Virus record (IMG/VR): IMGVR_UViG_2711768032_000005 | DNA: 25,905 nucleotides | Reading direction: 5' to 3' (one strand) | From: a virus | Lineage: Duplodnaviria; Heunggongvirae; Uroviricota; Caudoviricetes | Shown: one piece after another, positions 1-25,905 of the stretch | How positions within the stretch are numbered: position 1 is the stretch's first letter | Layout: each line of letters starts with the position of its first letter | Translations under genes and position numbers: made by a program | The notes under the pieces: generated by a model | The model's input: only the letters and a program-made list of their open reading frames with translations | Database searches by the model: none | Told to the model about the DNA's origin: nothing

Positions 1-318
1 ATGAAAAAGATAGCTGCTATATCATTAATTAGTATTTTTATTGTGTCTGGTTGTGCTGTGCATAATGATGAGACAAGTATCGGTAAATTTGGTCTTGCAT
101 ATAAAAGTAATATTCAGCGTAAACTCGATAACCAATACTACACCGAAGCCGAAGCTTCTTTAGCCAGGGGCAGAATATCTGGTGCAGAAAATATAGTAAA
201 AAATGATGCAGCCCATTTCTGTGTTACTCAGGGCAAAAAAATGCAGATAGTTGACCTGAAGACAGAAGGTGCAGGATTACATGGCGTCGCTCGTCTGACA
301 TTCAAATGTGGAGAGTGA
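1..318 (+). CDS. putative small lipoprotein in host-side flank, outside the prophage
   Basis: ATG at 1, 105-aa ORF; N-terminal hydrophobic signal with lipobox-like VSGC (Cys at residue 18); AT-rich; lies left of the att core. Upstream context not visible. Confidence 0.5.
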   Translation: MKKIAAISLISIFIVSGCAVHNDETSIGKFGLAYKSNIQRKLDNQYYTEAEASLARGRISGAENIVKNDAAHFCVTQGKKMQIVDLKTEGAGLHGVARLTFKCGE

Positions 319-380
319 GAATATTTTTTGGTAAGCGTCAAACATGCGCGTTCTGGTTGTGCTTAGCCGGAACCTGTGCG

Positions 381-413
381 AGCACGATGCCGTTACGTGA
401 AAGGCATCGTGCT
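381..413. repeat. perfect 11-bp inverted repeat (AGCACGATGCC / GGCATCGTGCT) with 11-nt loop
   Basis: Read directly from sequence, 63 bp after the lipoprotein stop. No U-tract on either strand, so not a classical intrinsic terminator. Confidence 0.5.
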
Positions 414-476
414 ATGAAGGGAGATTCTATCGATGTGGTCAATGGAAGACGGTGACCAGGGATAGGGCTTATGCAT

Positions 477-503
477 AAAAAATAAGCCCGTGTAAGGGAG
501 ATT
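477..503. other. attL: P2-type attachment core, prophage left junction (attL)
   Basis: AAAAAATAAGCCCGTGTAAGGGAGATT matches the 27-bp P2 att core as I recall it; sits 80 bp beyond the int stop where P2 places att. Recalled, not searched. Confidence 0.55.
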
Positions 504-520
504 TAGGGTGTCACCAGTAG

Positions 521-575
521 GGGCTTTCAACGGTACAATGCGGGTTTGAGCGGCATAAATTACCACTGAAAGCCC
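521..575. repeat. 9-bp inverted repeat (GGGCTTTCA ... TGAAAGCCC) with 37-nt spacer between att core and int stop
   Basis: Read directly from sequence; position fits the att arm region. Function is inferred only. Confidence 0.35.
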
Positions 576-582
576 TTAAACG

Positions 583-1596
583 TTACTCTACTGTGGACAC
601 TGTGTGGACACTCTCGGCCTCAGTACCACCTCTTAGCGGATTAAGAGAAATGGCGTCCTGAAGGTACTCTGGCGCAAAATGAGCGTAAACCATAGTTTGC
701 TCAATCCGCGTGTGACCTAGTATCCGTTGTAGCGTGATAATACTTCCTCCATTAATCATGAAATGAGTGGCAAAGCTGTGCCTTAGTGCATGTGTGGCTT
801 GCCCCATTGGCAAATCCGGTTTTATTGCTTTCATTGTTCGTCTGAAGCGAGGGTAATCAGCATCAGGGAATAAAAAACCTCGTTTGTTATCCGCGATCAT
901 TTTGGCAACAGCCTCTGAGATCGGGACGGTGCGTGGTTTGTTTGTTTTCGTTTTAACAAACGTGACGCGGTTATGGATGATATTTTCTGCTTTCAAACGA
1001 GCTGCTTCTCCCCAACGTGCTCCAGTACTCAGGCAAAGAATCGCAATCTTTTTGTTGTCGCCGTCAAGAGCAGCAAGCAGTAAGGCAATTTCTTCCTGTG
1101 TGAGATAGCCTGTGTCTGGTTTTTCCTCCTTAAGCCTTTTTGTCCCTCTGATAGGGTGCTCACCAAAGAATAACTCCGCTTCAATCAGGGCTGTAAACAT
1201 GCCGCTAATACATGTTAAATCACGATTGATACTCGAAGGTTTAATACCCTGACTTCTTCGGGTGGCGCAGTACTGGCTGATAAGCGATTTCGTAATTTGA
1301 AATGCGCATGGGTCATTCGTTATTTTTGTGAAGATTTCAATTTTTCCAAGATTAGATTTCCCATGCTCTTCGTGTTTACCCTTTAAATCCCACCAGATCT
1401 GTGTCAGCTCTGACAGACGTCGCTTGTCTGTTGGTTTTGATAGCCATTCTTTATTGTGGTGGTTGTACAACGTGTATTTCTCGAAAGCGACAGCTTCGCT
1501 TTTCTTATCAAACTTCCTACGGATGCGTTTTCCATTACGTCCAGTAGGGCGGATGTCCACTTCATATCGACCATCATCGAGTTTTTTGATTGCCAT
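583..1596 (-). CDS. int: tyrosine integrase, P2 Int-like
   Basis: 337 aa, same length as P2 Int as recalled; C-terminal catalytic region HALRHSFATH...LGH...VYAHF with terminal Tyr; ATG at 1596; adjacent to att core. Confidence 0.9.
   Translation of the reverse strand: MAIKKLDDGRYEVDIRPTGRNGKRIRRKFDKKSEAVAFEKYTLYNHHNKEWLSKPTDKRRLSELTQIWWDLKGKHEEHGKSNLGKIEIFTKITNDPCAFQITKSLISQYCATRRSQGIKPSSINRDLTCISGMFTALIEAELFFGEHPIRGTKRLKEEKPDTGYLTQEEIALLLAALDGDNKKIAILCLSTGARWGEAARLKAENIIHNRVTFVKTKTNKPRTVPISEAVAKMIADNKRGFLFPDADYPRFRRTMKAIKPDLPMGQATHALRHSFATHFMINGGSIITLQRILGHTRIEQTMVYAHFAPEYLQDAISLNPLRGGTEAESVHTVSTVE
592..610. promoter_or_regulatory. two direct repeats TGTGGACA 11 bp apart, candidate integrase arm-type binding sites
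   Basis: TGTGGACA at 592-599 and 603-610, overlapping the 3' end of int. Matches my recollection of the P2 Int arm-site consensus; not verified. Confidence 0.4.
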
Positions 1597-3079: not shown

Positions 3080-3142
3080 ATAATTAACCAGAGTTTTTAA
3101 CGCACTTAATCGTGCGGGGCTTCTTTTTGCCTGGAGAAAGTC

Positions 3143-3367
3143 ATGCATACAGTTTCTGAAAATCAGTGCGGTATATACGCATTACTGCTGCAACAGGCCA
3201 GAACCGAAGCACAGGCCGACGCTGCGACGCGCTTTTCTTCTCATCTTGACGCCATGATTCGCCACATCACAAAGGCGGAGTTATCCCGCGTGGAGATAGT
3301 CGAGCTGCTAAGTCAGGAGTCGGAAAAATTTCACAATATCGGATTGTCTCGCGGGAAGGTGCTTTGA
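3143..3367 (+). CDS. hypothetical early protein
   Basis: 74-aa ORF with GGAGAAAG RBS; P2 early-region synteny. Confidence 0.5.
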
Positions 3368-3669
3368 TGTCCTGTTCTCATTCAGTTGTATTACTGAATA
3401 ACGCCTTAAAAATCGCCGTTATGAAAAATGGTGATTTGTCTCTTATTCAACTTTGTCTTGATAAAGAAAAACGCGACATAACTGAATCTGTTATCGCGAT
3501 TTATCAGAATGAATTAAACCTCCTGTCTGATGTGGTCAATTTACTTGTTAAACGCGCTGTATTCCACAAGCAAATTTCATCCGTGGATGAGCTGACAAAA
3601 TTAACGACAGAAATCGCCAGCTATTGCGCTGATGAATTCAAGAAACTGAACGATAAAAGGAGCTGGTAA
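3367..3669 (+). CDS. hypothetical early protein
   Basis: 100 aa from ATG 3367 (track start 3364 is TTG); TGATG overlap with the upstream ORF. Confidence 0.5.
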   Translation: MSCSHSVVLLNNALKIAVMKNGDLSLIQLCLDKEKRDITESVIAIYQNELNLLSDVVNLLVKRAVFHKQISSVDELTKLTTEIASYCADEFKKLNDKRSW

Positions 3670-3893
3670 TGCCGGACAACGTAGATTTTATTCAGGAACA
3701 ACAGGCTGAATTACTGGAGCGCCAGATTAACGCGGCAAGGGTAAAACATTGCGGTGTTTCTTCGCTGGTTTGCGAAGAGTGTGATGCGCCAATACCTGCT
3801 GCCCGTCGTGCGGCTTATCCGTCAGCCACGCGTTGTGTTTCCTGTCAGTCAGTCTTTGAAGCAAAAAACAAACATTACCGGAGAACGGCATGA
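3669..3893 (+). CDS. TraR/DksA-like C4 zinc-finger protein
   Basis: 74 aa; CEEC-(x17)-CVSC motif typical of the phage TraR/DksA zinc-finger family; AAGGAG RBS. Confidence 0.6.
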   Translation: MPDNVDFIQEQQAELLERQINAARVKHCGVSSLVCEECDAPIPAARRAAYPSATRCVSCQSVFEAKNKHYRRTA

Positions 3894-24352: not shown

Positions 24353-24363
24353 TGGATCCCGTA

Positions 24364-25905
24364 TCAGTGGTAATACTCACTGCCGCGTACGTTTTCGTGT
24401 TCCATCGTGGATAACAGATCTGGTTTTGGATCCTGAACAGGTTGTTTATCCAGACCTTTTTCCAGGATCGATTTAATACCTGACAGACGCCATACCTTTG
24501 TTTTCAGAGCTCTTGCACATGCTGCATTAAGTCTGGCTTTACTGTATTTTTTATGAAGGTTCAGGAGTCCAAGGCAGAAGCGATAGCTTTGTTCCGGATG
24601 TGGACGAGAGTTCAGTATATGAAGCACATAACTATGAGTTTCACTGCCTATGTGCCCCGCCCATTCCAGAAGACGCTCTGGCGTCCAGGTGGCATGCTGT
24701 CGATGAGCTTCAGGCATGTGCTCGTTGCGGGTACTGTAGCCATAAGTACGCTTGCGCGGGTGCACAGCAACCTCCTGCCCCTGATTGAAGAGTCTTACCA
24801 GTTCTCCGGAGATCCATGCTTCCAGTTGCTGGCCTAACAGCGAACATGGAACCGAGTAGTAATGTTTGTCGATTTCCACGTGGTAATCGGCATGAACTCT
24901 GACTTTCTTCACCAGGGTGTAACTGTAACTGGCTTCAGGAAGAGGCTTCAGTGCGGGTTTATCAAGCTGGATGAAGAGTTCTGCACGTGAATAACCCAAC
25001 TTCTGCATTATTTTGTTATTCAGTCTTTCCAGCAACTCCCGAATGCGCTGATTAAGCGATGCAAGGCTGTAGAAGATCTCATGCCTGATTCGGGCCATGA
25101 TCCAGCGTTCAACAACCTGAACGCCAACTTCAGCTTTGGCTTTATCTTTCGGTTTACGTGGCCGCGCAGGCAAAACTGCGACATTATAATGCTCAAGCAT
25201 CTGCTGGTAGGTAGGGTTAACGTCAGGATCATACTTACATGCCCTGGATGTGGCGCTTTTCAGATTGTCCGGAACAACAAGTTCAGGAACGCCACCCAAC
25301 CACTGGAAGCAGCGAACATGACTCATCACCCAGTCTTCAAGCTGCTGAGACCAGGTGGCCTCTGCCCATGTGTAACTTGATGCCCCGAGAACAGCTACGA
25401 TGACCTGAGCAGTTCTTATTTCTCCGGTCTCAGGGTCGGTAACGCCAACGGTAGGTCCACAGTAATCAACGAAAAGTTTTTCGCCAGCTTTATGTACCTG
25501 ACGCATTGATGGTGAAGTGGTTTTGAGCCATTCACGGTACATCCGGCAGTAATGGTTATAGCTGTAAAAACCGCCTGGATTACGCTCACAGTATTCTTCC
25601 CAGAGTAGCTGCAGCGTCACGCATTTATTACGCAGTTCCCGGTGTACTGTAGCCCAGTCAGGCAGAGAGTGCTTCTTCATCTTAACCTGGGTCTGAAGGA
25701 ACGCATGTTTTAGTTTTGTATCATCCCATCCTGTAGGTAAGGGCCACTGCTTTATGCCAAGTTGAGCCGCCCGATTAGCATATCTGGATACAACGGAAGG
25801 GGAGATTGCAAGACTACGACCAATTTGTCGATGGCTGAGTCCAACACCGTATTTAAGCCTAAGAATTTCTTTAAGTTTTCTCATAGAAATTGGAACTGTT
25901 GGCAT
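24364..25905 (-). CDS. istA: IS21-family transposase IstA
   Basis: 513-aa ORF; N-terminal HTH (LSHRQIGRSLAISPSVVSRY); directly upstream of istB. ATG lies at the last three bases of the window, so the true start could be further upstream. Confidence 0.8.
   Translation of the reverse strand: MPTVPISMRKLKEILRLKYGVGLSHRQIGRSLAISPSVVSRYANRAAQLGIKQWPLPTGWDDTKLKHAFLQTQVKMKKHSLPDWATVHRELRNKCVTLQLLWEEYCERNPGGFYSYNHYCRMYREWLKTTSPSMRQVHKAGEKLFVDYCGPTVGVTDPETGEIRTAQVIVAVLGASSYTWAEATWSQQLEDWVMSHVRCFQWLGGVPELVVPDNLKSATSRACKYDPDVNPTYQQMLEHYNVAVLPARPRKPKDKAKAEVGVQVVERWIMARIRHEIFYSLASLNQRIRELLERLNNKIMQKLGYSRAELFIQLDKPALKPLPEASYSYTLVKKVRVHADYHVEIDKHYYSVPCSLLGQQLEAWISGELVRLFNQGQEVAVHPRKRTYGYSTRNEHMPEAHRQHATWTPERLLEWAGHIGSETHSYVLHILNSRPHPEQSYRFCLGLLNLHKKYSKARLNAACARALKTKVWRLSGIKSILEKGLDKQPVQDPKPDLLSTMEHENVRGSEYYH

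Follow-up and report, generated by a model that had tools for sequence, protein, structure and literature searches.

A single-copy hairpin without a U-tract between yegR and the P2 attachment core in E. coli

A perfect 11-bp palindromic hairpin stands between a lipoprotein gene and the attachment site of a P2-type prophage, and this position raises the question of whether the hairpin serves the host gene, serves the phage or serves nothing at all. The window, meaning the whole stretch of 25,905 nucleotides that we analysed, is an E. coli O157:H7-type chromosome carrying a P2-type prophage, and positions 300–620 are identical to E. coli O157:H7 strain TR01. The preliminary description had placed the hairpin at 381–413 with an 11-nt loop, and both coordinates and sequence proved exact. 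The features needed below are as follows.

1–318 (stop codon 316–318), + strand: yegR, a 105-aa lipoprotein-type ORF, annotated yegR in E. coli genomes; Pfam PF27694 YegR
346–379, + strand: neighbouring weaker stem-loop with G-U pairs, from the fold of 319–465; pairing not conserved
381–391, strand-neutral: hairpin left arm, AGCACGATGCC, complementary to the right arm
392–402, strand-neutral: hairpin loop, GTTACGTGAAA, 11 nt, the most polymorphic part
403–413, strand-neutral: hairpin right arm, GGCATCGTGCT, perfect 11-nt complement of the left arm
430–476, no strand assigned: relic of a P2-type attP P arm, from alignment to P2 attP
477–503, no strand assigned: P2 att core, 27 bp, AAAAAATAAGCCCGTGTAAGGGAGATT; on the - strand, the 3' half of the cyaR terminator
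583–1596, - strand: P2-type integrase gene of the resident prophage, a 337-aa ORF; Pfam Int_N and Phage_integrase

Position and structure of the hairpin

The hairpin starts 62 nt past the stop codon of yegR, a poorly expressed, H-NS-bound gene without an assigned function, and it ends 63 nt short of the P2 core. Window 476–520 is a 100 % match to P2 attP 24355–24399, where the core is annotated at 24356–24382. In a prophage-free E. coli (locus L003) the sRNA gene cyaR, which lies on the - strand (Rfam RF00112, 100.7 bits), has these 27 bp as its 3' end; cyaR is a known insertion site of P2-type prophages (PMC3032704, Table 2). The gene order and the core position therefore place the hairpin in the convergent yegR/cyaR spacer, outside the present prophage, whose int gene is transcribed toward attL and the hairpin. 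In K-12, the ogrK-yegZ remnant stands between the hairpin and cyaR. As currently understood, the hairpin is not needed for P2 integration.

Several other assignments for this interval were tried and set aside. The covariance match to CyaR in the empty-site strain stops at the equivalent of window position ~480, leaving the hairpin ~65 nt beyond the 3' end, and the hairpin was rejected as part of the sRNA on that ground. The small ORFs that cross it (49 aa on the + strand, 57 aa on the - strand) have no Pfam match, and a possible 10-codon ORF at 434–466 was rejected as coding because polymorphisms there alter amino acids. On the prophage side of the core, two direct repeats of TGTGGACAC at ~592–613, inside the int 3' end, are the counterparts of the P' arm Int sites in the P2 annotation; an imperfect 18-nt inverted repeat (518–535/561–578) falls where the P2 annotation places Cox binding. 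Ten bases of the att core, AAGGGAGATT (494–503), recur just past the hairpin at 417–426, where K-12 has AAGGAGGATT; the recurrence may be accidental, or may go back to an earlier core or terminator.

As RNA, the hairpin is predicted to fold with about -20.8 kcal/mol on the + strand (39-nt segment) and -19.3 kcal/mol on the - strand, and its 53-nt contexts reach fold z scores of -4.8 and -5.3 against dinucleotide shuffles. Two extra A-T pairs (393–401 and 394–400) are possible past one G/A mismatch, giving a 5-nt loop. The stem is followed by ATGAAGGG on the + strand and by CGCACAGG on the - strand, with a U-tract on neither, and a consensus terminator scan of window 1–700 returned no site; the earlier remark that the hairpin lacks a U-tract and is not an obvious intrinsic terminator thus holds for both strands. 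The weaker stem-loop at 346–379 carries polymorphisms at 357, 366, 377, 378 and 379, and these include uncompensated changes (pairs judged by reading).

This is the sole perfect inverted repeat of at least 11 bp with a 3–20 nt loop in the 25.9-kb window. Dinucleotide-shuffled windows contain 0.12 such repeats on average, with at least one in 11 % of the shuffles, so that the hairpin alone is only slightly out of the ordinary. It stands out from chance through its position within a 160-bp intergenic region together with its presence at one shared locus in 5415 of 5426 complete E. coli genomes.

Copy number and variation in E. coli

The search for other copies in host genomes, which had been proposed earlier as a check, was carried out with a 43-nt query around the hairpin. 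It found a single locus per genome in those 5415 genomes and no other copies, and the locus is occupied whether the prophage is present or absent; where the perfect allele occurs, BLAST lists what looks like a second place, which is the palindrome aligned with its own opposite strand. In the MG1655 annotation there is no feature between yegZ and yegR, no repeat_region and no regulator site at the hairpin, the RefSeq annotation under the match in complete E. coli genomes is likewise empty, and no function is recorded at this position in either. Rfam gave no match to the hairpin at the gathering threshold or at a lenient E of up to 10. Elsewhere in the window, 11-mers resembling the arms do not exceed chance expectation.

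Phage collections point to the same locus. A scan of IMG/VR for the exact arms returned 94 contigs, 92 of which contain the same yegR flank inside P2-type prophage predictions, while the remaining two are unrelated high-GC chance matches. Across INPHARED (BLAST) and IMG/VR, no phage has the hairpin except as included host flank (vB_EcoM-720R8, 'phage TP'). A phage 186 match to 323–371 (E = 0.6) was not colinear and was treated as chance. Among the few genomes without the hairpin is E. coli E308 (L014 2571–2656), in which a deletion fuses the spacer at ~window 369 to a truncated P2-type baseplate J gene.

REPs usually occur in intergenic 3' regions, and the hairpin shares with the REP/BIME elements of E. 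coli the form of an intergenic palindrome of ~33 nt in such a region. Those elements, however, have many copies per genome, whereas the hairpin occupies one place and has no REP annotation; to our knowledge, it also bears no visible likeness to the REP consensus. The earlier proposal of a REP-like element is therefore refuted by the single place per genome, the empty annotation and the lack of an Rfam match, and the probability that the hairpin is any dispersed repeat or mobile-element end is practically negligible.

Variation was assessed across 35 haplotypes, found in 162 usable E. coli loci that came from genomes, metagenomes and IMG/VR; loci L009–L012 of the GTDB scan, being indel-rich error-prone assemblies, were dropped from the counts. 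In the loop, positions 393 and 396 vary commonly, and GATAAGTGAAA (the K-12 type) and AATAAGTGAAA are common alleles. The stem changes are C390T, G403A, C412T and the singleton G411A; none is compensated, no compensatory double change occurs in the sampled loci, and one haplotype has two adjacent weakened pairs. Apart from one singleton, all sampled haplotypes retain a stem of at least 9–10 bp (-14 kcal/mol or lower on the + strand). On the - strand, C390T and C412T, which are the two most frequent stem changes, produce A-C mismatches and lower the stability to -12 to -15 kcal/mol. We considered inferring a + strand RNA from the G-U wobble of C390T (strain JJ2434) and dropped the argument, as G403A and G411A favour the other strand.

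For the selection test we used 76 metagenome loci picked via the YegR protein, a choice unbiased with respect to the hairpin; the IMG/VR loci were left out because they had been chosen for intact arms. Of the 22 stem positions 4 segregate, as do 33 of the 123 other positions of the spacer (Fisher p = 0.6). With the stem as polymorphic as its flanks and no compensation, selection on pairing is undetectable.

A divergent Escherichia allele (L005, YegR 90 % identical) matches the window through position 380, and homology breaks exactly at 380/381; its spacer contains no comparable hairpin and differs in sequence until shortly before the core. Scanning metagenomes with YegR yielded loci at the E. 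coli level only, and the YegR relatives in Klebsiella sp. and Cedecea have another downstream gene and a context without cyaR.

The divergent alleles also display some features of their own. When L005 3299–3895 is compared with L003 1500–1860, the att core marks an abrupt, mosaic-like border: the two are ~99 % identical to its right (the cyaR and yegQ side), and the sequences to its left (spacer and yegR) have diverged strongly or cannot be aligned. In phylogroup B2-type and divergent alleles, an insert of 170–190 bp comes right behind the yegR stop codon (L005 3319–3500, L189 2819–2990, L002 ~1274–1450); compared with L190 2822–3154, it resembles the degraded beginning of a second small lipoprotein gene. 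That second gene is intact beside yegR in Cedecea and Klebsiella-like genomes, and the insert is completely lost in most E. coli, this window included.

A phage attachment-arm relic beside the hairpin

The hairpin had been described as lying in the host flank between the lipoprotein gene and att. This stands insofar as the segment from yegR to the core is outside the present prophage, but 430–476 is decayed phage attachment-arm DNA. Specifically, TCGATGTGGTCAATG at 430–444 is identical in 15 of 15 positions to an annotated P-arm site of P2 Int, and it is followed by GTGACCAG. Relative to P2, the relic has lost ~16 bp of the IHF-site region; its alignment to the P2 P arm nevertheless reaches z = 6.4 over shuffles, with a local score of 38 against 16.6 ± 2.3 for shuffled sequence. 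The divergent L005 allele has a fuller P arm, IHF region included (z = 7.4). By taking the DNA adjoining the hairpin as plain host sequence, the preliminary description had missed this relic.

The relic is present in nearly all E. coli, empty-site strains and K-12 included, for example at L003 1631–1677 and L001 ~3131–3177, and in L005 at ~3640–3715. Since the chromosomal flank has P-arm homology, even the 'empty' cyaR sites look like an ancient attR-type scar. On the simplest reading, a P2-type prophage would have left the bacterial arm behind as an attR-type scar, with P arm, core and cyaR in this order, that was fixed before E. coli diversified; the reverse direction, in which a phage captured host DNA, seems less likely. 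K-12 offers a comparable case, as its cryptic P2 remnant PR-X (ogrK and yegZ, the latter D') is likewise the scar that a P2-type prophage left at cyaR. In contrast to PR-X, the relic described here consists of a decayed P arm only, is older, and lies outside the annotated cryptic prophage in K-12 itself.

The TR01 prophage has the same P arm, but joined to a different core-left sequence. In the TR01 attR (L196 6104–6190, past the right end of the window), the 3' end of cyaR is chimeric and reads ...GCCUGUGUAAUGUCAGUUAUUGGUGACAUUUUUU in place of the native terminator, with the Rfam score falling from 100.7 to 55.4 bits in this lysogen. Since this core-left sequence is unlike the 27-bp core at attL, the junctions share only a few bases beside the crossover.

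P2 itself has a hairpin in a similar position, the terminator of ogr and the F operon (NC_001895 24265–24288), which, as here, stands just outside TCGATGTGGTCAATG. The distance to the att core is 68 bp for the P2 terminator and 63 bp for the hairpin; the former lies 5 nt, and the latter ends 16 nt, to the left of the shared TCGATGTGG motif. Unlike the P2 terminator, which has flanking A and T runs and looks bidirectional, the hairpin has neither U nor A tracts and stands in chromosomal DNA outside the present prophage. When 340–429 was aligned with the ogr-terminator region, anchored on the arm motif, z was 0.9–1.6 and p was 0.08–0.22. With a similar position and a non-significant alignment, a phage-terminator origin is plausible by position and unproven.

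A further reading joins these two elements: the hairpin and the relic Int arm site would together make the bacterial arm mimic a phage P arm, the hairpin being the surviving counterpart of a two-way ogr/int terminator. We consider this quite improbable. If it were true, C-int transcripts that run out of attL in a lysogen would still encounter a 3' structure of phage type, with a sib-like position effect on int, and the relic arm site might add to the preference of P2 Int for the cyaR locus.

Possible roles of the hairpin

If the hairpin has any activity, the most likely one, which we put forward tentatively, is that of an exonuclease-blocking, U-tract-less RNA 3' stem-loop for the yegR mRNA. 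The stem-loop anatomy after the stop codon, the lack of a canonical terminator and the yegRZ operon together favour this role, as do the retention of the hairpin at one locus in nearly all complete E. coli genomes and the survival of most of the stem in every sampled haplotype but a singleton. For K-12, an operon yegRZ is listed that unites yegR with the downstream yegZ (PMC3946193), which implies + strand transcription across the hairpin. Nearly all Rho-dependent transcripts of E. coli end right after stable stem-loops without U-tracts, to which PNPase and RNase II trim them back; most of these 3' stem-loops are not REPs, and a mild C-over-G (rut-like) bias is found downstream of them (Dar and Sorek 2018, PMC6061677). 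By the same route, transcription of yegR beyond its stop codon would allow a stem-loop of about -20 kcal/mol to fold in the 3' UTR, 62 nt downstream. Lacking a U-tract, this stem-loop would not itself terminate RNA polymerase; it would block PNPase and RNase II, the 3'-to-5' exonucleases trimming back a transcript that had ended farther downstream, and the outcome would be a discrete, stabilised 3' end of the yegR mRNA at ~413–416. We infer that yegR transcripts reach the hairpin and end there.

With the stem-loops reported in PMC6061677, the hairpin shares the stability, the closeness to a stop codon, the lack of a U-tract or A-tract and the single copy. It differs from them in its 11-nt loop, which looks long, and in its downstream + strand, which is G-rich rather than mildly C-rich: the 80 nt that follow contain 11 C and 25 G, the opposite of a rut-like bias, and such a bias is found only on the - strand (24 C and 13 G in 80 nt). 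Neither yegR nor yegZ nor b2085 has an entry in the Term-seq and 3'-end supplements searched. Counting against a yegR 3' stem-loop are this G-rich + strand, the undetectable selection, the missing hairpin in L005, and the different downstream gene of the Klebsiella and Cedecea relatives.

Nearly as likely as the yegR 3' stem-loop, and to be held just as tentatively, is that the hairpin is a functionless leftover, a neutral remnant at the edge of the ancient P2-type prophage scar that has been kept by common descent. It could be the decayed counterpart of an ogr or late-operon terminator, or a quasi-palindrome perfected by a replication template switch. The clearly decayed P-arm DNA next to it and the placement of both the P2 terminator and the hairpin to the left of the shared motif speak for this explanation, as do a stem polymorphism no lower than that of the flanks, the lack of compensation, the missing hairpin in L005, the sharp end of L005 homology at the edge of the left arm and the empty functional record of this position. 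Against it stand the non-significant colinear alignment with the P2 ogr-terminator region and the occurrence of the hairpin in phage collections solely as host flank; a perfect 11-bp stem beside DNA so strongly diverged from P2 is also somewhat unexpected under pure decay, and any transcript that crosses the hairpin would fold anyway. On the opposite strand, the hairpin might act as a 3' stem-loop followed by a Rho-loading region, limiting antisense transcription into yegR. The - strand hairpin is equally stable, its C-rich downstream sequence fits the reported architecture better than that of the + strand, and int reads toward it; in attP, the int transcript would meet the ogr terminator instead. 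The transcripts could come from cyaR run-out in non-lysogens, the CyaR terminator having shown 41 % readthrough in a plasmid assay (PMC9765468), or from the C-int operon of the prophage across attL in lysogens. However, the commonest stem variants weaken the hairpin on this strand, and in K-12 a prophage remnant parts the hairpin from cyaR. We give this role a low probability.

Two further explanations carry less weight still. The preliminary description had also suggested a protein-binding palindrome, which could be an operator bound by a dimeric regulator or an accessory site for recombination close to attB, and the perfect dyad symmetry and the nearness of the relic Int arm-type site (430–444) and the att core are in keeping with this. 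Operators do not typically have 11-bp half-sites around a variable 11-bp spacer, though, and the variable loop and 11-bp arms are more in line with a nucleic-acid hairpin than with the usual operator of a transcription factor. Moreover, the P2 Int, IHF and Cox sites are located elsewhere (P2 feature table), the arms are unlike any of them by reading, and MG1655 annotates no regulator site here; we consider protein binding very unlikely. A weak intrinsic (Rho-independent) terminator of yegR would agree with the stable GC-rich stem past the stop codon, but intrinsic terminators are expected to have a loop of 3–8 nt, and the loop here is 11 nt, or 5 nt only if the internal mismatch is accepted. 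With the consensus scan empty and the U-tract missing on both strands, the hairpin is not a canonical intrinsic terminator, and even a weak one is scarcely probable.

The hairpin is an ordinary single-copy instance of a common kind of element, and in itself it has little weight, since at most it would fix the 3' end of the yegR mRNA. Its context may be of modest interest to phage biologists, with the decayed P arm as a mildly interesting by-product. The decayed P arm at the 'empty' cyaR site would be the record of at least one fixed ancient integration, on top of which K-12 bears another scar, its second, and this strain a third prophage that is intact. With this relic in the flank, the bacterial arm of attL is not naive host DNA, and the relic could bear on the site preference of P2 and on read-out transcription from int.
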